Shown: in pieces, positions 19,033 to 35,010 of the stretch
Layout: every line of letters begins with the position of its first letter
Numbering within the stretch: position 1 is the stretch's first letter
Assembly (NCBI GenBank): GCA_019420085.1
Contig: JAHZHV010000234.1
Span: forward strand, 1-38,968
DNA length: 38,968 bases
From: Christensenella sp.
GTDB lineage: Bacteria > Bacillota > Clostridia > Christensenellales > Maliibacteriaceae
Reading direction: 5' to 3'
Notes under the pieces: generated by a model
Database searches by the model: none
Told to the model about the DNA's origin: nothing
What the model saw: the letters and a program-made list of their open reading frames with translations, nothing else
Made by a program: the position numbers and the translations under genes

Positions 19033-19171
19033 ATCTACGCCCCCTTCGTTACCTTTTTCTTCTATATTATAGTACTCTTTTATTATACTACAAAACCGAC
19101 TGTTTTCCCAGAGTGCCTCTGTATTTTTTGCCTATGTTTCAAAGGTGTTTTCACAGCTTTGGCAAAGCATC

Positions 19172-20272
19172 TTACTGTCGATTCACCACTGCGTTTTCTA
19201 CGGCATACATTGCATCAATTCTTGTTTTATCAAGGGGCAGCGCTTCAATATTCGTGCACGTTATAATGGTCTGGCAATCACCAACCGCCGTCAAAAGCTG
19301 TGCACGGCGTGCGGCATCCAATTCACCAAATACATCATCCAATAAAAGAATCGGTCGGTTTCCCGTATGTGTACGCATAAAGAAGAGCTCTGCCATTTTG
19401 ATGGATAACGCTGCGGTGCGCTGCTGGCCTTGTGAAGCATATAAACGCGCCTGCATTCCATTGATGCAAAGTTCCATATCATCCCGATGTGGCCCCATAC
19501 TGGTTGTACGACGTTGTATATCCCGGGTTCTTTGCTTTTTGCAGCTTTCCACAATCGCATCGCGTTCCTGCCCCGGATCACATGCAACGCAGGGTGCATA
19601 ACGTATCGACAGTTCATCCTGTCCGGCCGAAATACGATGCTGAATCTCCGCCGCAAGCGGAGCTGCTTCCATGCAGAACTGTCGGCGTGCACGCATCACG
19701 GCTGCACCGCAGCTGGCAATCTGCTCATCAAAAACGTCAAGCATATCCAAAAAAGATGCATTTTGCTGTCCGTCTTTCAAGAGCGTATTGCGCATCAAAA
19801 GCGCACGATTGTAATCCATCAGCGCCCGCAAATAACTTTTATACACTTGCGACAGCGCAACATCCATATACGTGCGTCTTCTTGCCGGCGCATCTTTAAT
19901 CAGCATGATATTTTCCGGAGAAAACAAAACTGCCTGCATTTGTCCGACAAAATCAGCCGTGCGCCGCACTGCCGCTCCATCCAATAAAATGCGCTTTCTT
20001 CCGCCGCGCCGCAGCGTAATTGCAATATCATGCGCCACATCACCGCGTGTAAAATGTGCCTTCACAAAAGAAAACCGCGTATCCATGCGAATCATTTCTT
20101 CTTCTTTTGCACCACGGTGGCTTTTTCCAGCACAACACAAAAAAACACTCTCCAGCAGATTTGTTTTTCCTTGTGCATTTCTGCCGGAAATAACCGTAAT
20201 TCCCGCAGGAAAGGAAAGCTGCGCCTTCTCATAGCAACGATAATCCGTCAATTCCAAATGACACAATCGCAT
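19172..20272 (-). CDS. recF: DNA replication/repair protein RecF
   Basis: Walker A motif GRNAQGKTNLLES, an ABC signature region, and Walker B motif LLLDDVFGELD. The start was moved to ATG 20272 (MRLCHLELTDYRCY), which follows GGGAGAAGG. Confidence 0.93.
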   Translation of the reverse strand: MRLCHLELTDYRCYEKAQLSFPAGITVISGRNAQGKTNLLESVFLCCAGKSHRGAKEEEMIRMDTRFSFVKAHFTRGDVAHDIAITLRRGGRKRILLDGAAVRRTADFVGQMQAVLFSPENIMLIKDAPARRRTYMDVALSQVYKSYLRALMDYNRALLMRNTLLKDGQQNASFLDMLDVFDEQIASCGAAVMRARRQFCMEAAPLAAEIQHRISAGQDELSIRYAPCVACDPGQERDAIVESCKKQRTRDIQRRTTSMGPHRDDMELCINGMQARLYASQGQQRTAALSIKMAELFFMRTHTGNRPILLLDDVFGELDAARRAQLLTAVGDCQTIITCTNIEALPLDKTRIDAMYAVENAVVNRQ

Positions 20273-20434
20273 ATGCGCCTTCTCCCTTCCCACGTTTTCG
20301 GTGTATCAATCGTACACTCTATTATACCGTATTTTCTCACGCATTGCGACCTGTGTCATCCACAAAGACCCCTCCTCTGATTGCCGCAGCGCAATGAAAA
20401 ACCATTGCATCCTTCCTTTCTCTGAATTTAAACC

Positions 20435-20468
20435 AAAAAGACCTGCACCACTCGTACAGGTCTTTTTT
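20435..20468 (-). terminator. terminator of the LysO pair
   Basis: A GACCTG...CAGGTC stem flanked by A- and T-runs, immediately after the stop codon. Confidence 0.55.
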
Positions 20469-21070
20469 CACCCAAACAGCTTATAGATAACCGAAATCAA
20501 TACAGGCACAAACACCGAACAAATCGTCCCATTTAAAACCGACAATACAACACTTTCCTCATCGGTATATTTCATCATCATGGGTAATGTCGTATCTTCA
20601 CTTGTAGCGCCCGCCGCTGCAATACAGGCGGCAGGATTCATATACTTTGCAATAAGCGGAATGCAGAAAAAAGACAAAATTTCACGCATCAGGCTTCCTA
20701 AAAAGGCTACGCTTCCATACATTGCACCCGACAGCACTTCGATCGTCACACCACCAAGACTATACCATCCCATGCAACTTGCAATGGCCATGCCTTCGGC
20801 CAGCGGATATCGCGTTACAATTGCACAAAGCCACCCTCCCGCGATCGAACCAATCATGACACCAAGTGGAATAAGCAGCAATTTAACATGATATTGTCGT
20901 ATTTTTTGAAATATTCCCCGTTGCTGACCAATGCTGATACCCACTGTTATCATTAACAAGTTTAAGATTATATCACTATTTGCACTTAACCATGTAAAAA
21001 AAGCATTTTGTTCTATGAAGCAGCCGCATAATACTCCGCCAATCAATGCTACAAGAGCAAATACTACCAT
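20468..21070 (-). CDS. LysO/DUF340-family membrane protein, large subunit (putative lysine exporter)
   Basis: 200 aa and polytopic. It pairs with a roughly 90-aa membrane protein 2 nt upstream, as is typical for the split LysO family in Firmicutes. Confidence 0.6.
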   Translation of the reverse strand: MVVFALVALIGGVLCGCFIEQNAFFTWLSANSDIILNLLMITVGISIGQQRGIFQKIRQYHVKLLLIPLGVMIGSIAGGWLCAIVTRYPLAEGMAIASCMGWYSLGGVTIEVLSGAMYGSVAFLGSLMREILSFFCIPLIAKYMNPAACIAAAGATSEDTTLPMMMKYTDEESVVLSVLNGTICSVFVPVLISVIYKLFG

Positions 21071-21072
21071 TC

Positions 21073-21351
21073 TTACCGATCCCTTCTAATTTCCTTGGAA
21101 CCTTTTTTTGTTATTAGATAAACCAATCCCATAGAAGCCACCATCGGAAATAAGCAAAAAAGAAGACTTTCTAATCCAATTGATGGAAGATTACTTAGTA
21201 ATCCATCGTTTTTTCCAAGTGATAATCCCATACAAAAAATCAATAAAACAGTAAATACCGTTTGTATATGGCAAAGTGCTTTATTCCATTTTTTCGGAAA
21301 AATCCATCTTCCAATCGCAATTCCGACACACATTAGTAAAATTGTCTGCAT
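21073..21351 (-). CDS. LysO/DUF340-family membrane protein, small subunit
   Basis: 92 aa counted from ATG 21351 (MQTILLMCVGIAIGR...), with 3 TM segments. The longer track ORF extends into the leader. Confidence 0.55.
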   Translation of the reverse strand: MQTILLMCVGIAIGRWIFPKKWNKALCHIQTVFTVLLIFCMGLSLGKNDGLLSNLPSIGLESLLFCLFPMVASMGLVYLITKKGSKEIRRDR

Positions 21352-21441
21352 CTTCTGTGACCCTTTTCGCATTCTTTTGCAAAGTTGATTTGTATATCTT
21401 CTTTCTCCGTTTGAATGCACCCACACATGCAATGCACCGTT

Positions 21442-21570: not shown

Positions 21571-21612
21571 AAAAAAGGGGCGTGTCTGTTCAATACAGAC
21601 ACGCCCCTTTTT
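21571..21612. terminator. bidirectional rho-independent terminator ending the sugar operon
   Basis: AAAAAA, then GGGGCGTGTCTG-ttcaata-CAGACACGCCCC, then TTTTT: a perfect 12-bp stem. Confidence 0.9.
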
Positions 21613-21664: not shown

Positions 21665-23506
21665 TCAAAACACATGGGTCTGCAAAAAGCCATCCATTTC
21701 AATGACAATACAATCCTGCGTTGTCTGCACATACAACAGTTCTGCCTTCTGCAGACAATCCCTGATAAATTCCAATTCCTTCTGGTCATTTTGCCTTGTT
21801 TGATCAAATACATAACGGGCATACGTTACATCATACTCATAATACGACATCAAAGCATCATATTCTTCCTGCGTCAGCATCTGCGTTAATTTCTCTAATT
21901 GCTCTGATTCCAGTGCATAGACATAATAAGCATTATCTGTTTGAATAATTTGATATTCCTGTGGATTCTCTCCCAGTTTTTCCAGTGCATGTTCTACAGC
22001 AAATGTACCATACGGATTATATCCAACCTGTTCGGAAATTCTACCAACCACACAAATTGTCTGCGTCTGTTCGGTCATCTGCGAAGCAATACTCTGCAGC
22101 AGATATTGATAACTGTCACGACTATACATCGACCACATGTTTGCATAAAGGATTGTATTTCCCGTAACCAGCACAGCAAGCAGACCCAACGTCGCACGGC
22201 GAATACAGGGCAAGTGCTTTGAAGCGCAAAAGACTTTGTTCTGAATCCATCCTGCAATGATTTTAAGGCCGCATAACATATGATATACCACCAACGCAAT
22301 CAGAACGAACTGATAGTACGTCAAAATCGTATTTTCAGGCAGAATTAAAAACGGGTAGTAGCAAAGCGGATAGGCACAAAGGTGAATGAACACACTCAAA
22401 AACCGCTTTTGTCGCAGTAATGAAACCAAATACGTCACAATCAGCGCGGCACAAACCAAAAGCAATACCCATCCAAGCCACGGAATCATACAGCGAATCG
22501 TATAAAAATGATGCAGAGGCGTATACATACGCATACCCAATAAGGCGGCACATATCTTCTGCGCAGCCTGCGGCACAACACGTGCGGCAAACCACATTAA
22601 TTTTTGTATTAGCTGCAGTGGCGTAACAAACTGCGCACGCGCACTCTGTGAAGCGGTAATGCCATAGAATTGCTGTACCAAACGTGAAGCTATCAGATAA
22701 GCAACGGCAATCACACCGTACAATACCAAAAGCAGAAACGCCTTTTTAAACCGTTCTTTTTCCTTGGAGTTTTTCTCCATCTGTGCGACGAACAATACAA
22801 AAACCACAGGCGTTGCAATTTGATACATGCAAAATGCACTTAAAAGTAAAAAAGCAAACACCACATAATACAGGGGCTTTTTTTCATCATACGCATGCGC
22901 AAACATTGCATACGCCGCACAAGAACATAACGTTGCATAAATGACAATCGAAACCGACAAATATCCAATGCAATCTGCCGCAATAACGCTGCAGGTACAC
23001 AGCAATACAAAACAAACGGCAAATGCAGCACCTCTGCCGCTACACTGTATATAACAAAACAAAAAACCGGCTAAAACGGACAGGACGCATACATTTACCA
23101 TGCGTGCAATATTTAATTGTTCCAGCGAAAGACCGGAAAAGATACCCGACGTTACTTCCAGCGGGCGTTGCAACCCAACAGCAACCTCCGGCAGCATGCC
23201 CGACGGATTGTGATATGCCCAATAATCATCACCATAGCAAAATCCGTTAAGCAAAAATGGCAGCATGCCAAGCAATACCAGCCCCATCAATACCAGCATC
23301 ATACGCCTTTGCCGCTGCGACTGTTTCCACATGACATATGCACAGACGACAAGCGTCGTGCCCATCGCAATGGAATACCAAAGGCGAATCGCTGTTAAAT
23401 TTTGAAAGCGCAGTGACAGTACAAGAAAAAGAACTGCACAAACACCCAACCAACAAAGGAAAATCCATCTATTTTTTCGAAATACGCTATCCATATACTT
23501 ATGCAT
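21665..23506 (-). CDS. large polytopic membrane protein with a C-terminal soluble domain; candidate GT-C-type (GtrC/YfhO/GtlB-like) extracytoplasmic glycosyltransferase
   Basis: About 613 aa, with roughly 12 or more hydrophobic helices over the first 430 aa and then a 170-aa hydrophilic tail. It is the last gene of the operon. The start ATG 23506 overlaps the GT2 stop by 8 nt. Confidence 0.6.
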   Translation of the reverse strand: MHKYMDSVFRKNRWIFLCWLGVCAVLFLVLSLRFQNLTAIRLWYSIAMGTTLVVCAYVMWKQSQRQRRMMLVLMGLVLLGMLPFLLNGFCYGDDYWAYHNPSGMLPEVAVGLQRPLEVTSGIFSGLSLEQLNIARMVNVCVLSVLAGFLFCYIQCSGRGAAFAVCFVLLCTCSVIAADCIGYLSVSIVIYATLCSCAAYAMFAHAYDEKKPLYYVVFAFLLLSAFCMYQIATPVVFVLFVAQMEKNSKEKERFKKAFLLLVLYGVIAVAYLIASRLVQQFYGITASQSARAQFVTPLQLIQKLMWFAARVVPQAAQKICAALLGMRMYTPLHHFYTIRCMIPWLGWVLLLVCAALIVTYLVSLLRQKRFLSVFIHLCAYPLCYYPFLILPENTILTYYQFVLIALVVYHMLCGLKIIAGWIQNKVFCASKHLPCIRRATLGLLAVLVTGNTILYANMWSMYSRDSYQYLLQSIASQMTEQTQTICVVGRISEQVGYNPYGTFAVEHALEKLGENPQEYQIIQTDNAYYVYALESEQLEKLTQMLTQEEYDALMSYYEYDVTYARYVFDQTRQNDQKELEFIRDCLQKAELLYVQTTQDCIVIEMDGFLQTHVF

Positions 23507-24476
23507 GTCCTTTCTCATTTTTCTGCAGATTCGTCTGCCCGCAGTCAAAATTCAAACGTTCCTGTTCCACAACAAGCGGACGATGCATCAAGCGTGTATT
23601 GATTGCTGCAATGTATTCTCCCAAAAATCCCATAAATGCAAGCAATACAGAACACATCATCGAAAGGATGATAATCGTGGGAGCCTGTCCCGCCTGAAAC
23701 GTATCCCAATACAGCAGCTTTAAAACAAGGTACACAAGACCAATCAAAAAGCTGATGATCGCAAAGAAAATGCCGGCAAATACGGCAATACGCATACCAA
23801 TTTTCGTATAACTGGTAAAGGAAAGCATTGCTGCATCGTAAAGCGTGTACCAATTGTTGTGTGTTTTTCCTGCACGGCGCCGCGCCTGCGTATAAGGTAC
23901 TTCCTTGCGCTTGCCGCCTAATTCCGCCACAATTCCACGGATAAACGGCGTGGAATCATCCAGCCGACGCAATACATCCAGAAAACTTTTATCATACAGG
24001 CCAAAACCGGTAAAATGCTCAATCTGATCTACGCTGGAAAACTTCTTGATCGTTCGATAATACAATGACCGCAGCCAATACATGATTTTATTTTCCTGGC
24101 TTGCAGTCTTGATTCCACAGACAATCTGATATCCTTCCTCCCAATACTTTAAAAAAGTCGGAATCATATCTACCGGATCCTGAAAATCCGCACAAAGCAT
24201 AATCGCACAATCACCATCTGTTTGCGTCAAACCATAATACGGACTATTGAACTGACCAAAGTTTTTGCAGTTTAGAATTGCCTTTACTTTGTGATCGCAG
24301 CTGCAAATTGCGCGCAGAATATCACGCGTACCATCCTGACTCATATTGTCAATAAACAGAATATCGTACTGGTATCGGTCGCGCAGCTGTTCCATCTGAT
24401 CGCGAACTGCTTCATAAATCGCCTGTATATTTTCCCGTTCATTATATGTTGGAATCATGATGGAGACTTTCTTCAT
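23499..24476 (-). CDS. GT2 polyprenol-phosphate glycosyltransferase (GtrB/ArnC/DPM1-like) with two C-terminal TM helices
   Basis: Begins MIPTYNERENI..., with DNMSQDGT, a DxD-like CADFQDP segment, and two C-terminal TM helices. Confidence 0.85.
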   Translation of the reverse strand: MKKVSIMIPTYNERENIQAIYEAVRDQMEQLRDRYQYDILFIDNMSQDGTRDILRAICSCDHKVKAILNCKNFGQFNSPYYGLTQTDGDCAIMLCADFQDPVDMIPTFLKYWEEGYQIVCGIKTASQENKIMYWLRSLYYRTIKKFSSVDQIEHFTGFGLYDKSFLDVLRRLDDSTPFIRGIVAELGGKRKEVPYTQARRRAGKTHNNWYTLYDAAMLSFTSYTKIGMRIAVFAGIFFAIISFLIGLVYLVLKLLYWDTFQAGQAPTIIILSMMCSVLLAFMGFLGEYIAAINTRLMHRPLVVEQERLNFDCGQTNLQKNEKGHA

Positions 24477-25396
24477 GTCACAATAAACTCCTTATAAAAT
24501 GCAATGGTTTGCGCAATGCCTTTTTCAAAGTCAACAAGGGGAACAAAACCTGTATCCTTTGTCAAAGAAGTGATATCTCCCTGTAAATAGCAAGTCTGTC
24601 CTGCGCGAGCGGAAATTTCTCCAAAATCCTGGGATACATCCGTATGAAAAAAGGAAGCTATCTGCGAAACATATTCCTTCAGCGGTCGTCCCTGGCCGCT
24701 TGCAACGCAATATACCGCTTGATCGCGTCCCTTCTGCCCAATCAGATACATAGCACGTGCACAATCATCCCGATACAGATAATCCCAGATTTGCGTGCAG
24801 GATGAAAGCGGCATATGTTCTGCGCGTTGCAAGTGCTCAATCAAAGAACGAATCAGTGTTCCTTCATTATCAAACGGTCCATAAACGCTGAATATCCGTG
24901 CCCAGCAAAAAGAAAGCCCCAATCTTTGACACTCCAATTGGCACAGCTGTCGTGCAGCATTTTTTGCAATACCATAAGCAATCACAGGGTTCGCCGGAGT
25001 GTCCGGCAATGCCGGTGCATGCAGCGTTCCATATTCTGCCTGTGATCCGGCGCCGACAAAGCGTTTGCATCCGACTCGCGCCGCCAGCCGAACTGCATGT
25101 AATGCGCTTTCTATGTTTTTTTGCTGTGTCACCGGATCACGCCGCGCCTTTTGAGAAGTTCCCTCCCAGGCAAAGTGAAAAAACACATCATACACGTCAT
25201 CCGGCAAAGAAAGCGATGCCAACTCACATAAATCACACGGCACAATACGCAGGTTCTCATGTTTGGGCAACCGATCCATCCGTGTCGTTCCCCTGCGGAC
25301 AAGCGCCGTTACACGCATGTCATTTGCAAGACATGTCTGCACACATGCCGAGGCAATCATGCTTGTTGCACCGCTTATAATTGCCGAACGCATCAT
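24473..25396 (-). CDS. NAD(P)-dependent extended SDR (epimerase/reductase; YerF- or CDP-abequose/paratose-synthase-like)
   Basis: Has an N-terminal Rossmann motif (ISGATSMIAS) and a catalytic YGIAK (YxxxK). Its ATGA overlaps the upstream stop codon. Confidence 0.8.
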   Translation of the reverse strand: MMRSAIISGATSMIASACVQTCLANDMRVTALVRRGTTRMDRLPKHENLRIVPCDLCELASLSLPDDVYDVFFHFAWEGTSQKARRDPVTQQKNIESALHAVRLAARVGCKRFVGAGSQAEYGTLHAPALPDTPANPVIAYGIAKNAARQLCQLECQRLGLSFCWARIFSVYGPFDNEGTLIRSLIEHLQRAEHMPLSSCTQIWDYLYRDDCARAMYLIGQKGRDQAVYCVASGQGRPLKEYVSQIASFFHTDVSQDFGEISARAGQTCYLQGDITSLTKDTGFVPLVDFEKGIAQTIAFYKEFIVT

Positions 25397-27183
25397 TTTT
25401 CTTCCCTTTCAAACAAGCGATTTCGATGCACCTCTTCCCGATCAAGGAATGGGAACATATCATCATAATCATGTGCAACCAACGTTCCATCCGGCAGTTT
25501 TTCAGAGGAAATGCGCGGAATCAGAAGCTGCCACTGCGGCGTCATCACTTCGCAAACAACCGGTCCCTGTGCAGACAAAACCTCTTCAATTTTCTGGTCC
25601 ATTTGTTCAACGCTGTCAATTCGCACACCGGCAATTCCATACGCCTGCGCAATCTTCAGCGTATCAGGACACCACACGCCTGAATCAGGGCTTTCCCCAA
25701 CAAATCGATCCTGCATAAAATTACGTTGCGTATGACGGATCAGCAAATACCCATTGTTATTGAAAACAAAAACCTTAATGGGAAGTTTGTTATGCGCAAT
25801 CGTTGCAAATTCCTGCAAGTTCATCTGCAGGCTTCCATCCCCTGTAACGCAAATTGTCTGCCGGCAATCATTTGCGACGCATGCGCCAATACAGGCAGCC
25901 CAATATCCCATTGATGAAATTCCGCCTGTGGTAAGAAAATGCTGTCCTTTTTTGATCTTCCAGCTCTGGCAAACGACATGGAAACACGAGCCTGTATCCA
26001 CAACGATCATCGCATCATTCGGCGTATGCCTGCTCAGCGCGTCGGCAAACAAATAAGAATTTACAGGTTTTTCATCTTTATACGATTCCTGCACAACAGG
26101 ATACCGTTTCTTCCAATCATTGCATTGCGCCACCCATGCCGAAAAATCAGGACATGCCTTTTCCGCAATACACGCCTGGAGACTATGTAAAAATGCGCCT
26201 GCATCCCCCAAAACTTTATAATCAATATGGCAGTTTGGCTTATCCAGCTCCTCAACATCAATATCCACCGCCATAACAAACGCATTTTCCGCAAATTGCC
26301 GCGGATTATGTCCAACAAGGGACGAAGCAAGGCGGCATCCGATTGATAAAACAACATCCGCATTTTGAATGGCAATATTTGCTGCGCGTTCTCCGTAATT
26401 TCCGGGACGCCCAACATACAATTCATCGTCGGAGGGAATCAGATCAATTCCAAGGCGAGCGGTAATCACAGGAATCCGCATTTGATGCGCTACTTTTTCA
26501 AAGATCTCTCTTGCACCGGACAAGGCCACACCCTGTCCTACAAGAAGAACGGGACGTTTAGCATTGCAGATCTTCTCATATGCAGCTTTTGCAGCTTTCT
26601 GCACGTCCGACAGTGAATACAGGGATTCATGCTGTATGACAACCGGTTTTTGAACAGGAACCTGTGCCTTCTGTACATCCAGAGGCACTTCAATCCATAC
26701 CGGACCGGGACGTCCTTGCGTCGCCGTTTCATATGCCGTCTCCAAAACCTGCTGCAGCGTCTGCGGATCATCAATGGTTTTGAAATACTTCACGACATTT
26801 TTAACAATCGGTCCAATATTGATTCCCTGTACACCATATTGGCGAATGTTCGTTTTTTCCTGATACCGTACAAACGGCAAATTCGTATGTCCTGAAATTA
26901 CAATCATCGGTGAAGAATCCGTATATCCTCCGACAACGCCGGTAAGGGCATTACAAGCGCCCGGACCTGCTGTCACCAATGTAATCGCAGGTTTATTTCG
27001 GATTCTTCCATAGGCATCCGCAGCCATGGCGCATGCCTGTTCATGATGATGGCATATAATCTTGTACGCCGGATTTCTCCCAATCGCATCATTCAAAAAC
27101 ATTGCCTGGCCGCCGGTGACCATAAATGCCGTATCAACGCCTTTTTTACTGAAAAAATCAAAAATATATTCCGATACGTTCAT
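25393..27183 (-). CDS. thiamine-diphosphate enzyme of the acetolactate-synthase/YerE family
   Basis: 596 aa. Contains the N-terminal Pyr domain with catalytic Glu (HHEQA), a central domain, and the ThDP motif GDGSLQMN...NNNGY. The RBS is GGGAGGA. Confidence 0.88.
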   Translation of the reverse strand: MNVSEYIFDFFSKKGVDTAFMVTGGQAMFLNDAIGRNPAYKIICHHHEQACAMAADAYGRIRNKPAITLVTAGPGACNALTGVVGGYTDSSPMIVISGHTNLPFVRYQEKTNIRQYGVQGINIGPIVKNVVKYFKTIDDPQTLQQVLETAYETATQGRPGPVWIEVPLDVQKAQVPVQKPVVIQHESLYSLSDVQKAAKAAYEKICNAKRPVLLVGQGVALSGAREIFEKVAHQMRIPVITARLGIDLIPSDDELYVGRPGNYGERAANIAIQNADVVLSIGCRLASSLVGHNPRQFAENAFVMAVDIDVEELDKPNCHIDYKVLGDAGAFLHSLQACIAEKACPDFSAWVAQCNDWKKRYPVVQESYKDEKPVNSYLFADALSRHTPNDAMIVVDTGSCFHVVCQSWKIKKGQHFLTTGGISSMGYWAACIGACVANDCRQTICVTGDGSLQMNLQEFATIAHNKLPIKVFVFNNNGYLLIRHTQRNFMQDRFVGESPDSGVWCPDTLKIAQAYGIAGVRIDSVEQMDQKIEEVLSAQGPVVCEVMTPQWQLLIPRISSEKLPDGTLVAHDYDDMFPFLDREEVHRNRLFEREEK

Positions 27184-27206
27184 CGTGTGTCCTCCCAGAT
27201 TCTGTA

Positions 27207-28244
27207 TTATAAAAGAGAAGATAGATAATAGGATTCGTCGTTTTGTTTGCTGTCTGCATGCAGTTGTTCTGCAATCTGCAGCAGCATATCTTCCTGTCCG
27301 GCGACCACTTTGCGTTTTCCCGCTTCAAGCAGAATATCCCGCGCATCTACGCCAAACGTCTTTGCAGCTTCGATCGCGTGGTACTTAAACGCGCTGAATG
27401 TTCCTGCAATACCATTGATAATACTGATATCATCCACACCCATGGTGCATTGCGGATATTGACGAACCAGATTTTGACTGACGTCCATTAAATGGTACAA
27501 ATCCAGCTTGGTTCGAATTTTTTCCTTCATCAAAAGTGCTGCAATTGCCTCCAGCTGACAATTTCCTGCGCCGGCACCATAGCCACGCAGCGTAGCATCC
27601 ACAATACTTGCACCATGATTAATCGCAATATATGTATTGGAAACCGCCATTCCTAAATTATTATGCGCATGAAATCCAACCTTGATATGTAACTGATCAC
27701 ACAACGCATCGATTGCATCCGCTACCATCTGCGGCGTAGATGCACCGGCACTGTCCATGATGATAACGCCGTGCGCACCATATGACTGCATCTTCAGCGC
27801 TTCTTCCACCAGGCGATCCGTCCCAATCATATGATACATCATCAAAACGCCATATACGGGCAATCCGCGTGAAGCAACATATTCAATATGCTGCTTTGTC
27901 ACATCTGCCTCCGTACAATGACATCCGATCTTTACAAGATCTGCACCAAGTTCTATTGCCGGTTTCAGATTCTCTTCAATCGTTCCAAAACCGGGAATCA
28001 TATAGACACCTAATTTTGTACGGTGCAGATTTTCCCTTGCTGTGCGCAGCATTTCCTCATCGCTGATTTTAGACATTCCAATATGCAGGCTGGAAGCGCC
28101 AAGACCATTCCCATGGCCCACAATGATGCAATCCAATCCTGCATCATCCATTGCACTGCAATAATCGCGAATATCCTGTGCACAAAACTGATGCTTATTG
28201 GCATGACTGCCGTCACGCAAAGTCGCGTCAAAAAACTGAATCAC
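27207..28244 (-). CDS. 4-hydroxy-2-oxovalerate aldolase family protein (DmpG/MhpE-like)
   Basis: Begins with DATLRDGSH, has HMGL-like TIM barrel metal ligands (HAHNNLG), and carries a C-terminal DmpG communication-domain-like tail. Confidence 0.88.
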   Translation of the reverse strand: MIQFFDATLRDGSHANKHQFCAQDIRDYCSAMDDAGLDCIIVGHGNGLGASSLHIGMSKISDEEMLRTARENLHRTKLGVYMIPGFGTIEENLKPAIELGADLVKIGCHCTEADVTKQHIEYVASRGLPVYGVLMMYHMIGTDRLVEEALKMQSYGAHGVIIMDSAGASTPQMVADAIDALCDQLHIKVGFHAHNNLGMAVSNTYIAINHGASIVDATLRGYGAGAGNCQLEAIAALLMKEKIRTKLDLYHLMDVSQNLVRQYPQCTMGVDDISIINGIAGTFSAFKYHAIEAAKTFGVDARDILLEAGKRKVVAGQEDMLLQIAEQLHADSKQNDESYYLSSLL

Positions 28245-29158
28245 ACCTTAGCCTCCTCTGCACCTTTTTGTACGACGTACATCTCAGCCATATGTACTGC
28301 CGCACAGGTAATAATATCAAGATTTCCGGCATAGGAAGGCAAAAAGTCACCGCTTCCTGTTACGCCGATGGAAACGGCAAGACGGCCGTTTTCATAAACC
28401 GGCGGAAGAATCATATGATATCCCGACACATACCGGCGAATCTGCTCAACCATGGATGTAACGGCATCTTCAATCTTTTGCATGTCCGGATGATCCACCA
28501 GCGCGTAAAGTGTATTGCGCATCATGATCGGCGGATTTGCAGGATTTAACACAATGATGGCCTTCGCCTTTTCAATCCCCGTAAACAACCGCAGCGCATC
28601 GGACGTCGTCTGTGTAAATTCATCAATATTTGCCCGTGTGCCTGGACCTGCGGATTTCGATGCAATCGTCGCAATCATTTCAAAATACTTTACATTCGGC
28701 TGCACACGGGATATTGCAACGGCAATGGGTACCGTCGCCTGCCCGCCGCAGGTAATCATATTGATATTATCATGCTTTAAGACTGCATCGGCATTTAATG
28801 TCGGAATACAAAACGGACCGATATGCGCCGGTGTCAAATCGATGGTAAACTTCCCAAGTTTCTTTAAAATCGGCGCATGATACATATGGACATTTGCTGA
28901 TGTTGCATCAAAAACAATATCGCAGCACTGCGGATTGCGGACAAGATAGTCAATGGAATCATATGTCACCGGCACACCCATTTGTATCGCCTGCTGAATA
29001 TTTTTGGAATCCGGATTATGACCGGCAAAAATTCCGCATTCCAAAAAACTGCTTTTTCGCACTTTGAACAGCAGATCCATGCCAATATTTCCCGTTCCAA
29101 GAATTGCAACTTTCACTTTTTCCAATGCTCTATCTTCATCTCCCTTTCTCCGTTTCAC
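28241..29158 (-). CDS. acetaldehyde dehydrogenase (acetylating) family protein (DmpF/MhpF-like)
   Basis: Contains VAILGTGNIGMDL (Rossmann), the NMITCGGQATVP active-site Cys segment, and a semialdehyde-DH fold. ATGA overlaps occur at both ends. Confidence 0.88.
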   Translation of the reverse strand: MKRRKGDEDRALEKVKVAILGTGNIGMDLLFKVRKSSFLECGIFAGHNPDSKNIQQAIQMGVPVTYDSIDYLVRNPQCCDIVFDATSANVHMYHAPILKKLGKFTIDLTPAHIGPFCIPTLNADAVLKHDNINMITCGGQATVPIAVAISRVQPNVKYFEMIATIASKSAGPGTRANIDEFTQTTSDALRLFTGIEKAKAIIVLNPANPPIMMRNTLYALVDHPDMQKIEDAVTSMVEQIRRYVSGYHMILPPVYENGRLAVSIGVTGSGDFLPSYAGNLDIITCAAVHMAEMYVVQKGAEEAKV

Positions 29159-29637
29159 TTCTGTGACATCTTATCAGACCGGGAAAAAGCCCAGAATTTA
29201 TTAAGAATAAAGTTCAACGGAATTGTAACAATCAGCGTAAATAGACTGGCAAGCCAATATACAACATGTACCTTACCTAACCAGATTTTCAAAAGCGGCG
29301 CAAGTACAAGTCCTGTAATCGCATAGCAGATAAATGTACGCATGTATGCAATAAGATGCATTTTCAAAGTACGTTTATGTGCGCTTTGAAAAACATAGCG
29401 ACTGTTCCAGTAATAGGAATTGGTTACGCTGATCACAAATGCAATCGCTGTAACCACAATAACCTTCATGCCATAGTTCCATGCAATATCGCGAAAAAGT
29501 ACATAATAGCACAGCATTTCGATTGCATATGAAATGCATGTATTGGATAAACCAACGATACCGAATTTCACAAACTGCACTACCGGAGCCAATGCTCCTT
29601 CCTGCAATGTTTTGAAAAACGCATGTATCTTTTTCAT
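29155..29637 (-). CDS. gtrA: GtrA-family membrane protein (putative polyprenol-P-sugar flippase component)
   Basis: 160 aa with 4 TM helices, a VQFVKFGIVGLSNT N-terminal motif and an FxLNKFWAF C-terminal motif. Confidence 0.85.
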   Translation of the reverse strand: MKKIHAFFKTLQEGALAPVVQFVKFGIVGLSNTCISYAIEMLCYYVLFRDIAWNYGMKVIVVTAIAFVISVTNSYYWNSRYVFQSAHKRTLKMHLIAYMRTFICYAITGLVLAPLLKIWLGKVHVVYWLASLFTLIVTIPLNFILNKFWAFSRSDKMSQK

Positions 29638-30986
29638 TTTTTCTGTGCCTCAATCGCCTCTTGCACAGTCTGCGCCATGTAATCAATCATTTCATCCGTC
29701 ATGCCCGGATATACACCCAGCCAGAATGTATTGTTCATAATAAAATCTGTATTTTCAAGCGTCCCAACTACGCGATATGCGTCCGTATCCCGAATTGCAT
29801 CAAAACACGGATGCTTAATCAGATTACCACTGAACAACAATCTGGTCTGTACATTACGCGATTCTATAAAACGCGTCATCTCATTGCGGTCAAGACCACT
29901 TTGCGGCCGGACGGAAATCAAAAAGCCAAACCAGCTTGGCTCACTGGCAGGCGCCGGCTCCGGCAAAATCAGAAAATCAGACAGCGGTTCCAGTGCCGCA
30001 CGAAGACGCGCCCAATTGTGCTGACGCCGCTTAATAAAGGATGGAAATTTTTTTAACTGCTCACATCCGACAGCAGCCTGCATATCCGTTACCTTGAGAT
30101 TGTATCCAAAGTGACTGTATACATACTTATGATCATATCCCAAGGGAAGTTGTCCATACTGACGGTCAAAGCGATGACCACAGAAATTATCCTGTCCGGA
30201 AGGACAGATACAATCCCGTCCCCAATCACGGAAACTAAGAATCAGTCGATGCAAAAGCGAATCATTTGTATATACGCAGCCGCCTTCTCCCATCGTCATA
30301 TGATGCGGCGGATAAAAGCTGCTCGTTCCAATATCGCCCCATGTACCGGTATACCGCGTTTCATGATCGATTGTATAACGGGTACCCAAAGCATCGCAGT
30401 TATCCTCAACCAGCCAAAGATGATTTTCCTGACAAAAAGCTTTGACTGCCGAAAGATCAAATGGATTTCCAAGCGTATGCGCAATCATAACGGCCTTTGT
30501 CTTTTCTGAAAGCGCCGCCTGCAATTTGGTAACGTCAATATTATATTGCGGAACCGTCACATCTACAAAAACAGGAACCGCACCATATTGCAGCGCAGGC
30601 GTAACGGTCGTGGGAAAACCACAAGCCACCGTAATAATCTCATCACCTTTTTTAATGCGCCTTTCCCCCAGCTCCGGTGCTGTCAGCGCCATAAAAGCAA
30701 TTAAATTGGCAGAAGATCCGCTGTTAACAAGATGTGCATAACGTACACCGATCCATTTTGCAAATTCCGTCTCAAACTCATCCGCAAAACGTCCCGTCGT
30801 CAGCCAAAAATCAAGCGCGGCATCAACCAAAGCACACATTTCCGCATCATCAAAAACCCGCGCAGCATAAGTAATGCGATCCCCAGGCTCAAAATGTTTT
30901 TTCTGTTGTTTAAAATCCCGATAGTATTCCGATACAAGTGCGCGGATCTGTTCCCTAGCCTGCGCTTCATTCTGCCAATTACTCAT
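29634..30986 (-). CDS. rfbH: CDP-6-deoxy-L-threo-D-glycero-4-hexulose 3-dehydrase (E1), RfbH/DdhC type
   Basis: DegT/DnrJ/EryC1 fold in which the PLP lysine is replaced by His (SFYPPHHMTMGEGG). It also has the C-x-C-x7-C Fe-S motif (DCICPSGQDNFC). Confidence 0.9.
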   Translation of the reverse strand: MSNWQNEAQAREQIRALVSEYYRDFKQQKKHFEPGDRITYAARVFDDAEMCALVDAALDFWLTTGRFADEFETEFAKWIGVRYAHLVNSGSSANLIAFMALTAPELGERRIKKGDEIITVACGFPTTVTPALQYGAVPVFVDVTVPQYNIDVTKLQAALSEKTKAVMIAHTLGNPFDLSAVKAFCQENHLWLVEDNCDALGTRYTIDHETRYTGTWGDIGTSSFYPPHHMTMGEGGCVYTNDSLLHRLILSFRDWGRDCICPSGQDNFCGHRFDRQYGQLPLGYDHKYVYSHFGYNLKVTDMQAAVGCEQLKKFPSFIKRRQHNWARLRAALEPLSDFLILPEPAPASEPSWFGFLISVRPQSGLDRNEMTRFIESRNVQTRLLFSGNLIKHPCFDAIRDTDAYRVVGTLENTDFIMNNTFWLGVYPGMTDEMIDYMAQTVQEAIEAQKK

Positions 30987-32053
30987 GCGCCCTCTCCTTT
31001 TTCAAAGCATTCAATTTGTTCGTCCATGACATCGGAGATTTTTTCTCCTGCCAAATATGCTTTACTCCAAAGACATGTCATTTCAATTGCTTTTTCAATA
31101 TGCCAACGCGGTTTCCAACCAAAACATGCCTTGATTTTGCTGCAATCCAATTTCAAAAAATTTGCTTCATGCGGCGCATTTTGTTCCGCTTTATTCTGCC
31201 AGGAAGCACCGTCACCCCACTGATCACAAAACATCTGTACCAGCGTGCCGGTTGTAACGCAATCACATTCATCCGGTCCAACATTATACCATCCGGCATA
31301 CTTCTTATCCTGCGCTTGCATCGCTGCGATCATTAAATACGCAAAAAGGGGTTCCAGCACATGCTGATAAGGACGCGTGGAATACGGATTTCGAACGCCG
31401 ATGACTTCTTTATTCTGCATGGCCCGTACACAATCCGGGATAATACGGTCATTTGCAAAATCACCGCCGCCAATAACATTTCCCGCACGTGCAGTTGAAA
31501 TTGCCGGAGCATCTTCGTTGGAAAAAAAGCTGTTCTTATAACAATGCGTAACAAGTTCTGAGCAGCTTTTGGAATTGGAATACGGATCAAATCCATCCAG
31601 CATTTCTTCTTCCCGATAACCCCATACCCATTCGCGATTGTGATACACTTTATCCGTCGTCACATTTAAAACGCTTTGCACACCACCGCATAACCGAACG
31701 CATTCCAGAAGATTCACAGTCCCCATAACGTTCGTCTCATATGTATAACGCGGATTTCGATAACTATCCCGCACAATAGGCTGTGCTGCAAGATGCAGAA
31801 CAATCTGCGGCTTTGCCTGGCAAAAACTTGCATACAGCGTTTCAAAATCACGCACATCAGCAATGATGCTCGTCATATTTTCCTGTAAATCAGCCAATTC
31901 AAATAAATTGGGCTGTGTAGGCGGTTCAAGAGAATATCCCGTAACCTGTGCGCCTGCACGCAAAAGAATGCGGCATAGCCAACTTCCCTTAAACCCGGTA
32001 TGACCCGTGACAAAAACACGTTTTCCGCGATAGAATTCCAATATATCCATCAT
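30983..32053 (-). CDS. rfbG: CDP-glucose 4,6-dehydratase
   Basis: Contains VFVTGHTGFKGSWL and an extended SDR YxxSK motif (PYSNSK). The start ATG 32053 shares one base with the rfbF stop (TGATG). The longer track ORF has no RBS. Confidence 0.92.
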   Translation of the reverse strand: MMDILEFYRGKRVFVTGHTGFKGSWLCRILLRAGAQVTGYSLEPPTQPNLFELADLQENMTSIIADVRDFETLYASFCQAKPQIVLHLAAQPIVRDSYRNPRYTYETNVMGTVNLLECVRLCGGVQSVLNVTTDKVYHNREWVWGYREEEMLDGFDPYSNSKSCSELVTHCYKNSFFSNEDAPAISTARAGNVIGGGDFANDRIIPDCVRAMQNKEVIGVRNPYSTRPYQHVLEPLFAYLMIAAMQAQDKKYAGWYNVGPDECDCVTTGTLVQMFCDQWGDGASWQNKAEQNAPHEANFLKLDCSKIKACFGWKPRWHIEKAIEMTCLWSKAYLAGEKISDVMDEQIECFEKGEGA

Positions 32054-32832
32054 CAGTCCTGCCATACCTTCCAAGGCGCATTGCCGCTTGTCCAAAGTTT
32101 TTCAAGCATATCCATTTCCCGCTTGGTATCCATACATTGCCAATATCCGCGGTGCATATAACTCATCAACTCGCCTTCACGTGCCAGACGTTCCAGCGGT
32201 TCCCTTTCAAAAACGGTGTTGTCACCTTCAATGTAATCAAAAACTTCTGGCTCTAAAACCATATATCCTGCATTTATTGGCGCACTGTCATCCTGCCTTT
32301 TTTCGCGAAAAGATCGCACGGCATTATCACCGCCAATATCCAAAACACCCTTTTGCTGTTCCAGCATAACGGCAGTCAACGTCGCTTTATGTCCATGTGA
32401 ACGATGAAAATCCAACAGCTTCGTAATATCCACATCACAAACGCCATCACCGTACGTCATCATAAATGTCTCTTTTCCCACATACGGCGCAATGCGTTTG
32501 ATTCTGCCGCCTGTCATCGTATTTAAACCGGTATCCACAACCGTTACCTTCCATGGTTCTGCCTTGCGGTTGTGCACGATCATTTGATTTCCCTGTGTAA
32601 AATCAAATGTTATATCGCTCGTATGCAAAAAATAGTCAGCAAACCATTCTTTTATCACATGTTGTTTATATCCGGCACAAATAATAAACTCATGCAATCC
32701 ATAATGTGCATATTCTTTCATGATATGCCATAAAATCGGCATACCTCCAATTTCAATCATGGGTTTTGGTTTATACTGACTTTCTTCACTGATGCGTGTA
32801 CCGTATCCGCCTGCAAGAAGTACAACTTTCAT
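32053..32832 (-). CDS. rfbF: glucose-1-phosphate cytidylyltransferase
   Basis: Close motif-by-motif resemblance to Salmonella RfbF (LAGGYGTRISEE..KPKPM.EIGG.PILWHIMK...GYWQCMDT.R). The start ATG 32832 follows AAGGAG. Confidence 0.93.
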   Translation of the reverse strand: MKVVLLAGGYGTRISEESQYKPKPMIEIGGMPILWHIMKEYAHYGLHEFIICAGYKQHVIKEWFADYFLHTSDITFDFTQGNQMIVHNRKAEPWKVTVVDTGLNTMTGGRIKRIAPYVGKETFMMTYGDGVCDVDITKLLDFHRSHGHKATLTAVMLEQQKGVLDIGGDNAVRSFREKRQDDSAPINAGYMVLEPEVFDYIEGDNTVFEREPLERLAREGELMSYMHRGYWQCMDTKREMDMLEKLWTSGNAPWKVWQD

Positions 32833-32926
32833 TTTCTTCTCCTTATTCATTCCCTATCTGCACTGTATCTTTTGCCTTTGCAATAGGTCTTTTATTTGAA
32901 ATTGAAAACACCTTTCCTACTATATC

Positions 32927-32955
32927 ATCCTAATCATCTTTATATCGTTTGTCAA
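32927..32955 (-). promoter_or_regulatory. candidate sigma-A promoter of the sugar operon
   Basis: On the minus strand: TTGACA (32955-32950), 17 nt, then TAGGAT (32932-32927). This gives a 5' UTR of about 95 nt. Confidence 0.45.
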
Positions 32956-33107: not shown

Positions 33108-33142
33108 ATAAAAAAACAGTGTGGAAATCCACACTGTTTTTG
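33108..33142. terminator. bidirectional rho-independent terminator after the GGGtGRT gene
   Basis: AAAAAA, then ACAGTGTGGA-aa-TCCACACTGT, then TTTT. Confidence 0.8.
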
Positions 33143-33155: not shown

Positions 33156-34163
33156 TTACTTCTGCGCTTCTTCGACCGCAACAGCAACCGCAACGGATGC
33201 ACCGACCATGGGGTTGTTGCCCATGCCGATCAGACCCATCATTTCTACATGCGCGGGAACGGAAGAAGAGCCGGCGAACTGTGCATCACCATGCATACGA
33301 CCCATGGTATCCGTCATGCCATAGCTGGCAGGACCGGCTGCCATGTTGTCCGGATGCAGGGTACGACCCGTGCCGCCGCCGGAAGCAACGGAGAAATACT
33401 TCTTGCCGTTGTCATAGCACCATTTCTTGTAAGTGCCCGCAACAGGATGCTGGAAGCGCGTGGGGTTGGTGGAGTTACCGGTAATGGAAACGTCAACCTT
33501 CTCAAAGCGCATAATCGCTACGCCTTCGGAAACGTCGTCTGCACCATAGCAGCGAACCTGTGCATTAGGACCATCGGAATACGCCTTTTCTTCCACGATA
33601 TTCAGCGTACCGGTCGCATAATCATACTTGGTCTCTACAAACGTAAAGCCATTGATACGGCTGATGATCATTGCCGCATCTTTGCCAAGACCATTCAGGA
33701 TAACGCGAAGCGGCTGCTTGCGAACCTTATTTGCAGTCTTTGCAATGCCGATTGCACCTTCTGCAGCGGCAAAAGACTCATGACCTGCCAGGAAGCAGAA
33801 GCATTCCGTCTGCTCACGAAGCAGCATTGCGGCAAGATTTCCGTGACCCAAACCAACCTGACGCTGATCTGCAACGGAACCCGGGATGCAGAATGCCTGC
33901 AGGCCGATACCAATCGCAGCAGCGGCATCCGCAGCATTTTTGCAGCCCTTCTTCAGCGCAACAGCTGCGCCAAGGGTATACGCCCAGCAGGCGTTCTCAA
34001 AAGCAATGGGCTGAATGCCGCGCACAATCGCCGCAACATCAATACCCTTTTCTTTGCAGATTTTATCCGCATCCTCCAAAGAAGCGATGCCATATTCGGC
34101 CATGCAGGCTTCAATCTGCTTGATTCTGCGTTCATATCCTTCAAACTGTACCATGTTTTTCAC
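33156..34163 (-). CDS. GGGtGRT-family protein (function unknown)
   Basis: 335 aa carrying the family-defining ASGGGTGRTLHPDN motif. It has no TM or signal sequence. Confidence 0.8.
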   Translation of the reverse strand: MKNMVQFEGYERRIKQIEACMAEYGIASLEDADKICKEKGIDVAAIVRGIQPIAFENACWAYTLGAAVALKKGCKNAADAAAAIGIGLQAFCIPGSVADQRQVGLGHGNLAAMLLREQTECFCFLAGHESFAAAEGAIGIAKTANKVRKQPLRVILNGLGKDAAMIISRINGFTFVETKYDYATGTLNIVEEKAYSDGPNAQVRCYGADDVSEGVAIMRFEKVDVSITGNSTNPTRFQHPVAGTYKKWCYDNGKKYFSVASGGGTGRTLHPDNMAAGPASYGMTDTMGRMHGDAQFAGSSSVPAHVEMMGLIGMGNNPMVGASVAVAVAVEEAQK

Positions 34164-34175
34164 CTCTGCTGCGGA

Positions 34176-34868
34176 TTACTTTTTGCGGGGGTCGATGTAG
34201 GAGACAGCCTCGGCATAACGGCCATACGTGCCAATGTTCGCCTCATAAGCCTCTTTGGGATCCATACCCTTCTTGATGGCATCCATCATCTTGCCAAGAT
34301 GCACGAACTTATAACCGATCACTTCGCCGTCCTTGTCCAGCGCCATTTCAAGCACATAGCCTTCCGCCATTTCAAGATAACGGACGCCCTTTTCCTTCGT
34401 GCCATACATGGTACCGACCTGGCTGCGCAGACCCTTTCCAAGATCCTCCAAACCCGCGCCGATGGGCAGACCGTTTTCGGAGAAAGCCGTCTGCGTGCGG
34501 CCATAGACAATCTGCAGGAACAGCTCGCGCATAGCGGTGTTGATTGCATCGCAGACAAGGTCCGTATTCAACGCTTCCAGAATGGTTTTGCCCGTCAGCA
34601 CCTCGGCAGCCATTGCAGCAGAGTGCGTCATACCGGAGCAGCCAAGCGTTTCAACCAACGCTTCCTGAATCACGCCTTCCTTGACGTTGAGCGTCAGCTT
34701 GCAAGCGCCCTGCTGCGGTGCACACCAGCCAACACCGTGCGTCAAACCGGAAATGTCCTTAATCTCCTTGGCATGAACCCATGCGCCTTCTTCAGGAATG
34801 GGCGCCGGACCGTGATGGGGTCCTCTTTTTACACACACCATCTCGGCCACTTCTTTGGAATACTGCAT
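34176..34868 (-). CDS. NifU/IscU-N-like Fe-S scaffold-fold protein with a C-terminal extension
   Basis: Has IscU-like Cys-bearing segments (GWCAPQQGAC, ETLGCSGMTHSAAMA, LVCDAI). The start ATG 34868 follows AAGGAGGAAG. It lies 12 nt upstream of the GGGtGRT gene. Confidence 0.7.
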   Translation of the reverse strand: MQYSKEVAEMVCVKRGPHHGPAPIPEEGAWVHAKEIKDISGLTHGVGWCAPQQGACKLTLNVKEGVIQEALVETLGCSGMTHSAAMAAEVLTGKTILEALNTDLVCDAINTAMRELFLQIVYGRTQTAFSENGLPIGAGLEDLGKGLRSQVGTMYGTKEKGVRYLEMAEGYVLEMALDKDGEVIGYKFVHLGKMMDAIKKGMDPKEAYEANIGTYGRYAEAVSYIDPRKK

Positions 34869-34937
34869 GTGTCTTCCTCCTTGCATGAAGTCAAATTGCG
34901 TTCAAATAAGCCGCGTCATGTTTTCGCCGCTCTTTAG

Positions 34938-34975
34938 ATTATAGCACAGTTTGTCCTGCCGCGGTGCGCTTTTGA
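34938..34975 (-). promoter_or_regulatory. candidate extended -10 promoter of the NifU-like/GGGtGRT pair
   Basis: On the minus strand, TGcTATAAT (TATAAT = 34943-34938). The -35 is weak. Confidence 0.4.
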
Positions 34976-35010
34976 CATACTTTTGCCATATAAAACCGCG
35001 TTTTTTTGGT

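Follow-up and report, generated by a model that had tools for sequence, protein, structure and literature searches.

A 38,968-nucleotide contig of Christensenella sp. (i.e. JAHZHV010000234.1, the whole of which is referred to as the window) carries a ten-gene operon whose products are predicted to build a branched 3,6-dideoxy sugar and to attach it outside the membrane by way of a lipid carrier. Ten co-directional open reading frames (ORFs) occupy the minus strand from 32850 to 21665, in the order rfbF, rfbG, rfbH, gtrA, dmpF, dmpG and then genes for a thiamine diphosphate (ThDP)-dependent enzyme, a short-chain dehydrogenase/reductase (SDR), a family 2 glycosyltransferase (GT2) and a large polytopic membrane protein. 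This order is the one given in an original prediction made from the sequence alone, and Pfam and NCBIfam profile searches directly supported all ten gene calls and their domain assignments. ATGA overlaps were found at four junctions (i.e. rfbG/rfbH, rfbH/gtrA, ThDP/SDR and SDR/GT2) and GTGA overlaps at two others (i.e. gtrA/dmpF and dmpF/dmpG), all six of which had been described as ATGA. As previously described, the rfbF/rfbG junction is a TGATG with one base in common and the GT2 and membrane-protein genes overlap by 8 nt, provided that the latter starts at the ATG at 23506. Between dmpG and the ThDP gene lies a gap of 23 nt, which contains a Shine-Dalgarno-like GGGAGG.

The promoter-like element and the strong terminator previously placed on either side of the ten genes were both recovered. 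The operon is closed by an intrinsic terminator (21571–21612, minus strand), in which an 18-bp G+C-rich stem precedes a run of Ts (−37.6 kcal/mol, z = −7.9). At the other end, a TTGACA-17 nt-TAGGAT site (32927–32955, minus strand; 10 of 12 matches) precedes the rfbF start codon by ~75 nt, within the sole sizeable intergenic gap, and was the top-scoring promoter-like match of the region. Promoter-like matches were not enriched in this region (18 observed versus 28 expected), and this site alone is therefore weak evidence. The GGGtGRT gene upstream ends in its own terminator (approximately 33108–33141, minus strand; 13-bp stem and T-run; −20.5 kcal/mol, z = −5.8), indicating that the operon is a separate transcription unit. 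A riboswitch or leader RNA upstream of the operon was considered and rejected, as no Rfam family gave a match anywhere in the window.

The first three genes encode a CDP-3,6-dideoxyhexose core, as originally predicted, and all three products scored above the cut-offs of their equivalog models. RfbF (DdhA; 32053–32850, minus strand; 265 aa) is a glucose-1-phosphate cytidylyltransferase (TIGR02623, 384 bits versus a cut-off of 300). RfbG (DdhB; 30983–32053, minus strand; 356 aa from an ATG overlapping the rfbF stop codon) is a CDP-glucose 4,6-dehydratase (TIGR02622, 449 bits versus a cut-off of 278). RfbH (DdhC, E1; 29634–30986, minus strand; 450 aa) falls among the pyridoxamine phosphate- and [2Fe-2S]-dependent CDP-6-deoxy-L-threo-D-glycero-4-hexulose 3-dehydrases (NF011936, 721 bits versus a cut-off of 423). 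A full-length match of RfbH to the Yersinia E1 enzyme (3bcx/3bb8; 506 bits) was obtained, and His220 and the four [2Fe-2S] ligands (i.e. Cys193, Cys251, Cys253 and Cys261) were all conserved; judged by these features, RfbH is a genuine E1 dehydrase. E1 dehydrases require an E3 reductase partner (AscD/RfbI/DdhD). No ferredoxin-NADP-reductase-like ORF was present as an E3 candidate among the window ORFs scanned with Pfam, and a crude search for a 2Fe-2S motif plus RxYS gave nothing convincing in the window or in 84 loci compared with it, a result that does not imply genome-wide absence. The earlier statement that RfbF, RfbG and RfbH make CDP-4-keto-3,6-dideoxy-D-glucose thus fails as worded, since E1 needs E3 and these three proteins alone are insufficient. 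As the window contains no E3 gene, 3-deoxygenation depends on another electron donor; conjecturally, an unlinked reductase, ferredoxin or flavodoxin may stand in for E3.

The genes following gtrA encode a putative donor module. The DmpF/BphJ/ErwJ-like protein (28241–29158, minus strand; 305 aa) is an acylating acetaldehyde dehydrogenase (TIGR03215, 395 bits versus a cut-off of 282) and retains a TCGGQA motif, which we take to be the DmpF active-site cysteine motif. The DmpG/BphI/ErwI-like protein (27207–28244, minus strand; 345 aa) is a class II pyruvate aldolase of the 4-hydroxy-2-oxovalerate aldolase family (TIGR03217, 363 bits versus a cut-off of 286), matched DmpG (1nvm) with 245 bits, contains the DmpG communication domain and retains the metal/catalytic residues Arg17, Asp18, His21, His200 and His202. 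The ThDP enzyme (25393–27183, minus strand; 596 aa; three TPP domains) is a YerE/ErwE/JanthE-like carboligase and the predicted C-4 branching enzyme. It was below every NCBIfam cut-off for acetohydroxyacid synthase (AHAS; e.g. TIGR00118, 358 bits versus 538), and its best match in the PDB was JanthE (8rph; 386 bits, 2e-114), ahead of plant and bacterial AHAS (~232 bits) and PpYerE (5ahk; 224 bits), in line with a YerE-like enzyme rather than a housekeeping AHAS. Members of this enzyme family formed >7,000 clusters at E < 1e-30, and the nearest relatives among the matches listed (~65–76% identical) came from Lachnospiraceae, Eubacteriales and Lachnoclostridium metagenome-assembled genomes. The SDR (24473–25396, minus strand; 307 aa; PF01370, 113 bits) is an extended SDR that keeps a YxxxK motif (YGIAK) and is a candidate for a side-chain ketoreductase of the YerF/ErwF type. 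Where GxxGxxG is usual for dinucleotide binding, this protein and its closest homologues carry GATSM(I/L)G, which reads SGATSMIA in the window.

Conservation of this arrangement was examined with a scan for the ThDP enzyme in 185,579 species genomes (one per GTDB species), in which at least 80 loci were searched with the ten window proteins; three Lachnospiraceae loci (L002–L004) were from a metagenome look-up. Among the loci listed, linkage of rfbH, dmpFG and the ThDP gene was directly observed across phyla. Wherever the ThDP gene of a listed locus was at least 51% identical to that of the window (L005–L020; Clostridia, Gammaproteobacteria, candidate phyla radiation (CPR) bacteria and Brevinema), dmpF-dmpG lay immediately upstream of it, and the same was seen in L002–L004. 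Partial gene sets were present in Clostridium gasigenes DSM 12272 (L011) and Hungatella hathewayi (L064). A neighbour-joining tree placed the window enzyme inside a clade whose every member has an adjacent dmpFG pair, with a sister clade from Lachnospiraceae and Oscillospiraceae (44–47% identical) that lacks dmpFG. The SDR gene adjoins the ThDP gene in ten loci (L005, L007, L009, L011, L016, L043, L076, L085, L088 and L089), so that its position directly downstream of the carboligase gene is conserved. The complete order rfbF-rfbG-rfbH-gtrA-dmpF-dmpG-ThDP-SDR-GT2 was present in L005 (Lachnoclostridium) and L089, and the rfbH-gtrA adjacency in L005, L076, L085 and L089. The ThDP gene closest to that of the window was found in L088 (77% by tblastn; 76% in the family search), a locus from which gtrA is absent.

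Three loci (L076, L085 and L086) had frame genes (i.e. rfbF/G/H and GT2) that were 58–82% identical to those of the window (74–82% for rfbH, 58–61% for GT2) but ThDP enzymes that were only 39–41% identical, belonged to another clade and were not accompanied by dmpFG. The order in L085 and L086 was rfbH-gtrA-ThDP-SDR-(extra genes)-GT2 followed by a homologue of the polytopic protein. As the ThDP clade shifts together with dmpFG while the frame genes stay similar, dmpF-dmpG-ThDP behaves in these comparisons as an exchangeable cassette, i.e. as a donor module that appears to be swapped between loci. In L002–L004, rfbF, rfbH, dmpF, dmpG, the ThDP gene and rfbG were found amid CDP-glycerol glycerophosphotransferase-like, methyltransferase and GT1-type (Glyco_trans_1_2) genes.

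Residues that flank the substrate were altered in the aldolase. The window enzyme has Phe at the position of DmpG Tyr291 and Tyr at that of Leu88. Across 27 sugar-cluster aldolases (i.e. the window enzyme and the dmpG homologues of L002–L020, L035–L038, L041, L043, L049, L056 and L066), Phe replaced Tyr291 in all 27 and Tyr, Phe or His replaced Leu88 in 26. In BphI, the corresponding Leu87 and Tyr290 flank C4 of the substrate, the Y290F variant loses stereocontrol and the engineered L87W/Y290F and L87N/Y290F variants cleave the 4R enantiomer only (PMC3962088). The Leu88 and Tyr291 replacements resemble these engineered variants, and hence the natural enzymes look 4R-type; the sugar-cluster DmpG-like aldolases may constitute a natural 4R-specific subfamily.

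The remaining three genes encode a putative delivery apparatus. GtrA (29155–29637, minus strand; 160 aa; PF04138, 68 bits versus a cut-off of 26) is a small membrane protein of the GtrA family and is proposed to flip the polyprenyl-phosphate-linked sugar. The GtrB/ArnC-like GT2 (23499–24476, minus strand; 325 aa), a proposed polyprenyl-phosphate glycosyltransferase, gave full-length PDB matches only to polyprenyl-phosphate enzymes, i.e. GtrB sll0501 (1.8e-32), ArnC (1e-26) and DPMS, and scored under the NCBIfam cut-offs for both PgfS (155 bits) and ArnC (113 bits). Its translation contains two C-terminal hydrophobic segments, likely transmembrane. Homologues of this GT2 (43–61% identical; profile score of at least 440 bits) were found within 10 kb of a YerE-like gene at ~28 of 83 distinct loci, including loci of Clostridia, Acidobacteriota, Verrucomicrobiota, Planctomycetota, Chloroflexota (Anaerolineae), Deltaproteobacteria and CPR bacteria. 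Example positions of GT2 genes by YerE-like genes are 13045–13998 in L054, 13123–14067 in L073 and 15239–16231 in L068.

The polytopic protein (21665–23506, minus strand; 613 aa from the ATG at 23506, in an ORF extending to 23548) matched PF14264 (GtrII) and is a proposed extracytoplasmic transferase of the glycosyltransferase C (GT-C) fold. Its AlphaFold2 model was of high confidence (predicted local distance difference test score (pLDDT) of 91.6, predicted template modelling score (pTM) of 0.92), and the top 18 PDB matches of this model in Foldseek were all GT-C enzymes (AglB, STT3, PglB, AftA, Pmt4, DPY19 and ArnT among them), so that the fold itself was directly apparent in the comparison. 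In an alignment of 41 family members, Asp93, Arg114 and Arg290 were invariant, Asp93 forming part of a DDYW motif that follows the early helices. The family is very small: a word-based search found two homologues, and an exhaustive HMMER search found 92 representatives among 1.84 billion sequences. The few homologues located follow the same GT2 in rfbH-gtrA-ThDP-SDR-GT2 loci, one of them (P0123) lying directly after the GT2 gene in L085 and L086. Alone among the related loci compared, L005 contained weak homologues of the window protein (E = 1.9e-5), and Pfam searches with the polytopic proteins encoded close to the GT2 in related loci were uninformative. Several members among the relatives P0126, P0129, P0131 and P0133 are ~800 aa in length and have an N-terminal extension of 200–260 aa that has no Pfam match.

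Other loci differed in their delivery genes. In L088, two small EamA/TPT-like (ArnE/F-like) proteins are encoded at 13657–14383, after the GT2, and an RgpF-type gene comes next. L089 has no homologue of the window GT-C protein; ~1.2 kb past its GT2 gene, the opposite strand carries a YfhO gene. The presence of an ArnE/F-like pair for GtrA in L088 and of YfhO nearby in L089 would be non-orthologous swaps consistent with a three-component model. The operon and the window ORFs scanned contained no Wzx/Wzy, initiating transferase or ABC exporter, so that the absence originally noted for the operon holds for these ORFs also. Together with the PF04138 match of GtrA, the GtrB/ArnC relationship of the GT2 and the GT-C fold modelled for the polytopic protein, the trio is of Gtr type, and the export route originally proposed is well supported.

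The sugar-building genes closely parallel the erwiniose cluster of the plant pathogen Pectobacterium atrosepticum SCRI1043, which combines genes for CDP-4-keto-3,6-dideoxy-D-glucose with ErwE (ThDP), ErwF (reductase), ErwI (BphI-like) and ErwJ (BphJ-like) (Steitz 2022, PMC9306805). ErwJ converts acetyl-CoA to acetaldehyde, ErwI joins acetaldehyde and pyruvate to give 4-hydroxy-2-oxopentanoate, and ErwE, which rejects pyruvate and prefers the 4R form, ligates this compound to a ketone analogue of the sugar (PMC9306805). Compared by gene content rather than by sequence identity, the two have the same enzyme set and logic with all genes adjacent, and the 4R-type signature of the aldolase fits the donor preference of ErwE. 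They differ in host, which is Gram-negative with an O-antigen for erwiniose and has a Clostridia-type genome here, and in delivery: erwiniose is proposed to reach lipopolysaccharide via a glycosyltransferase, whereas here GtrA, a GtrB-like GT2 and a GT-C protein are encoded in one operon with the sugar genes. No Pectobacterium was present among the 80 loci listed or among the 120 best matches of a profile of the gammaproteobacterial dmpFG-linked enzyme. Yersiniose A synthesis by YerE and YerF in Yersinia pseudotuberculosis shares the acceptor, CDP-4-keto-3,6-dideoxy-D-glucose, and the sequence of ThDP-dependent C-4 branching and ketoreduction. YerE, however, uses pyruvate for a C2 branch and needs no aldolase pair, whereas the ThDP clade of the window is always accompanied by dmpFG in the loci listed; the window enzyme also scores lower against PpYerE than against JanthE. 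The latter (from Janthinobacterium sp. HH01; 8rph, 8rpi and 8rpj) is the best solved relative of the window enzyme and is YerE-like, but is only 35% identical and has an unusual CDG ThDP motif where the window enzyme has the canonical GDG. JanthE accepts ketones and takes C3–C6 2-oxo acids, including 4-hydroxy-2-oxovalerate and also pyruvate. Catabolic DmpFG/BphIJ pairs differ from the pair in the window, which has Tyr and Phe at the positions of BphI Leu87 and Tyr290 and no hydratase or meta-cleavage neighbours.

The delivery genes resemble the three-component systems (i.e. GtrA/GtrB/Gtr of O-antigen glucosylation and, in Gram-positive bacteria, CsbB/GtcA/YfhO and GtlA/GtlB), in which a GT2 charges polyprenyl phosphate with the sugar, a small flippase moves it across the membrane and an acceptor-specific GT-C enzyme acts on the outer side (PMC11127046; PMC7389260). 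The same three parts are present here, and the GT-C enzyme is the most variable part in both. Known systems use UDP-Glc, UDP-GlcNAc, UDP-Gal or phosphoribosyl pyrophosphate-derived pentofuranoses made elsewhere, whereas the present operon includes the genes for seven enzymes that synthesise a rare branched sugar in CDP-activated form, and its GT-C protein is from a very small family. The closest operon logic is that of arnBCADTEF, which adds 4-amino-4-deoxy-L-arabinose to lipid A and similarly combines synthesis of an unusual sugar with an ArnC-type GT2, a flippase and a GT-C enzyme in one transcription unit; the ArnE/F-like pair in L088 is a further likeness. The sugar, the nucleotide carrier (UDP in the arn system) and the acceptor (lipid A in the arn system) are different, and the likeness does not extend beyond the GT2 and the overall GT-C fold.

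Taken as a whole, the operon is probably a self-contained unit for modifying a surface glycan, which combines the synthesis of an erwiniose-like sugar with its three-component, lipid-carrier attachment outside the membrane. In the proposed pathway, for which the substrates of all enzymes, the direction of the DmpFG reaction, the use of a CDP-sugar by the GT2 and the acceptor are predicted, RfbF and RfbG would produce CDP-4-keto-6-deoxyglucose, from which RfbH (E1), with reductant from elsewhere, would remove the 3-OH to give CDP-4-keto-3,6-dideoxy-D-glucose. In parallel, the DmpF-like enzyme would convert acetyl-CoA to acetaldehyde, which the DmpG-like aldolase would join to pyruvate to give (4R)-4-hydroxy-2-oxopentanoate. 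The ThDP enzyme would decarboxylate this donor and attach the resulting C4 acyl unit to the keto sugar at C-4, and the SDR would reduce the side-chain ketone. The expected product is an erwiniose-like CDP-3,6-dideoxy-4-C-(1,3-dihydroxybutyl)hexose, to which no stereochemistry is assigned. The GT2 would load the sugar on polyprenyl phosphate, GtrA would flip the lipid-linked sugar across the membrane and the GT-C enzyme would transfer it to an extracytoplasmic acceptor (e.g. a wall polysaccharide, teichoic acid or protein). The original prediction of a 4-C-branched 3,6-dideoxyhexose is retained as regards a branched sugar; its yersiniose-type C2 branch, with no role for DmpFG, is replaced, because the operon has the gene set of the erwiniose cluster and a C4 branch is therefore predicted rather than the C2 branch of yersiniose A.

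Several points weigh against this interpretation. The reliance of 3-deoxygenation on an electron donor from elsewhere is one; another is that orthology to the assayed ErwE, YerE and ErwF enzymes is deduced from gene context and from a JanthE relationship of low identity. The ThDP tree is a neighbour-joining tree without support values. On the delivery side, the match of the polytopic protein to PF14264 is barely above the cut-off (31.9 versus 30 bits), its structural matches to GT-C enzymes have low TM-scores (0.22–0.38; probability 0.77–1.0) and the teichoic-acid-like cluster of L002–L004 has no GtrB-like GT2. This last finding indicates that the sugar pathway is not obligatorily tied to Gtr-type delivery, and in L002–L004 the sugar may be incorporated into a teichoic-acid-like polymer in another way. 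To our knowledge, the characterised GtrB-type enzymes take UDP- or GDP-sugars, and we know of none that uses a CDP-sugar.

Three other explanations were considered. The ThDP enzyme might transfer a C2 unit from pyruvate or from the acetaldehyde produced by DmpF, with the SDR giving a 4-C-(1-hydroxyethyl)-3,6-dideoxyhexose and the aldolase being accessory (e.g. in acetaldehyde/pyruvate recycling or buffering). The chemistry of YerE and YerF is established, pyruvate is accepted by JanthE, the closest solved relative, and L076, L085 and L086, which share the frame and lack dmpFG, presumably make a shorter branch. These dmpFG-less loci, however, carry a ThDP enzyme of the other clade despite the similarity of their frame genes, while the dmpF-dmpG-ThDP trio is strictly conserved throughout the clade of the window enzyme in the loci listed. 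ErwE, from the same gene context, rejects both pyruvate and acetaldehyde, and the stereo-determinant signature of the aldolase argues for a dedicated biosynthetic role; a C2 branch is accordingly considered unlikely. A housekeeping or catabolic origin, in which an acetolactate synthase and a 4-hydroxy-2-oxovalerate catabolic pair are chance neighbours of the sugar genes, would agree with the best NCBIfam names (i.e. acetolactate synthase, 4-hydroxy-2-oxovalerate aldolase and acetaldehyde dehydrogenase) but is highly improbable: the AHAS models scored far below cut-off, no ilvN/ilvH or other ilv gene, hydratase or meta-cleavage gene was present among the window ORFs, the linkage with rfbH and the ThDP gene is conserved across phyla, the Leu/Tyr pair that marks the catabolic enzymes is missing from the aldolase and overlapping start and stop codons couple these genes to the sugar genes. 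The AHAS and catabolic DmpFG identities were rejected on cut-offs, gene context and active-site residues.

The third explanation retains the sugar and alters its delivery, the GT2 being an ordinary Leloir transferase that adds this or another sugar directly to a lipid-linked glycan, and GtrA and the polytopic protein acting in an unrelated glycosylation or as a polymerase, ligase or O-acyltransferase-like membrane protein. Such a role would suit a GT2 family that is large and diverse, the sub-threshold PgfS and ArnC scores, the use of the sugar genes in L002–L004 without a GtrB-like GT2 and the low TM-scores. It is nevertheless quite unlikely, as the GT2 aligned over its full length, C-terminal helices included, only with GtrB, ArnC and DPMS, and the leading structural matches of the polytopic protein were GT-C enzymes without exception, and this protein has a conserved acidic motif in the loop that follows its early helices. 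Close relatives, moreover, swap the flippase or GT-C for ArnE/F-like proteins or have YfhO nearby, and the delivery genes are translationally coupled with the sugar genes in one operon. Erwiniose-like synthesis with three-component attachment is thus preferred.

The proximity of GT2 homologues to YerE-like genes in many phyla suggests, on genomic context, that C-branched sugars are widely delivered by way of a lipid carrier. A more extended proposal, regarded as possible rather than probable, is that the GT2 clade found by YerE-like genes comprises dedicated enzymes that would be the first CDP-sugar polyprenyl-phosphate transferases, and that C-branched 3,6-dideoxy sugars are commonly installed via lipid carriers instead of by classical transferases of the cytoplasm. 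In gut-type Clostridia, this clade would then supply a rare, fast-evolving GT-C family that adds an erwiniose-like sugar to wall polymers, with the donor cassette being exchanged to vary branch length.

Branched sugars of the 3,6-dideoxy type act as strong antigenic determinants and, in the literature consulted, are reported from the envelopes of Gram-negative bacteria and mycobacteria and from antibiotics made by actinomycetes. In the literature searched, no three-component system fed by a CDP-sugar was encountered, nor any erwiniose-like or branched sugar in Clostridia (including Eubacterium saburreum). A 2024 study is cited as listing >200 YerE-like clusters (PMC12247030), which may already hold Firmicute examples. 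The earlier view that the gene combination is undescribed therefore stands for the coupling to a Gtr-type system in a Firmicute and falls for the sugar-building set, which was described in 2022; the core sugar chemistry is known, and its coupling to a three-component system (in Clostridia, with the GT2 link extending to many phyla) appears undescribed. From the operon and its many relatives, Clostridia are predicted to display an erwiniose-like sugar at the cell surface, among them Lachnospiraceae-type organisms of the gut and rumen; such a sugar would be relevant to phage receptors, to recognition by the immune system and to the typing of strains. The operon also supplies a candidate CDP-sugar:polyprenyl-phosphate transferase (and its clade), a GT-C family that is both small and new, and a natural signature for pyruvate aldolases of the 4R type (i.e. 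Tyr, Phe or His at 88 and Phe at 291) of a type previously engineered by biocatalysis groups.

The operon is located in an origin-proximal block with the order parB, dnaA, dnaN, a NifU-like gene, the GGGtGRT-family gene, the operon, two LysO-type ORFs, recF, gyrB, a DUF4349 gene and gyrA, and the cumulative GC skew turns near 36 kb of the window. The G+C content of the operon (44.8%) is below that of its flanks (50.2% and 48.3%), which hints at insertion into an otherwise conserved neighbourhood; the base composition and gene order would fit an insertion into this block, with transcription along the direction of replication. The neighbouring stretches of the block are 33156–38915 and 13224–21432. 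The two adjoining LysO-type ORFs (20468–21432, minus strand; 119 and 200 aa), both of the LysO lysine-exporter family, represent either a two-gene arrangement or a split gene. Two long ORFs with no Pfam match are antisense to real genes, one at 2758–6675 (minus strand) opposing a pyruvate:ferredoxin oxidoreductase gene (2848–6540, plus strand) and the other at 33249–34937 (plus strand) opposing the GGGtGRT and NifU-like genes; both are most likely non-coding shadows in G+C-richer DNA.

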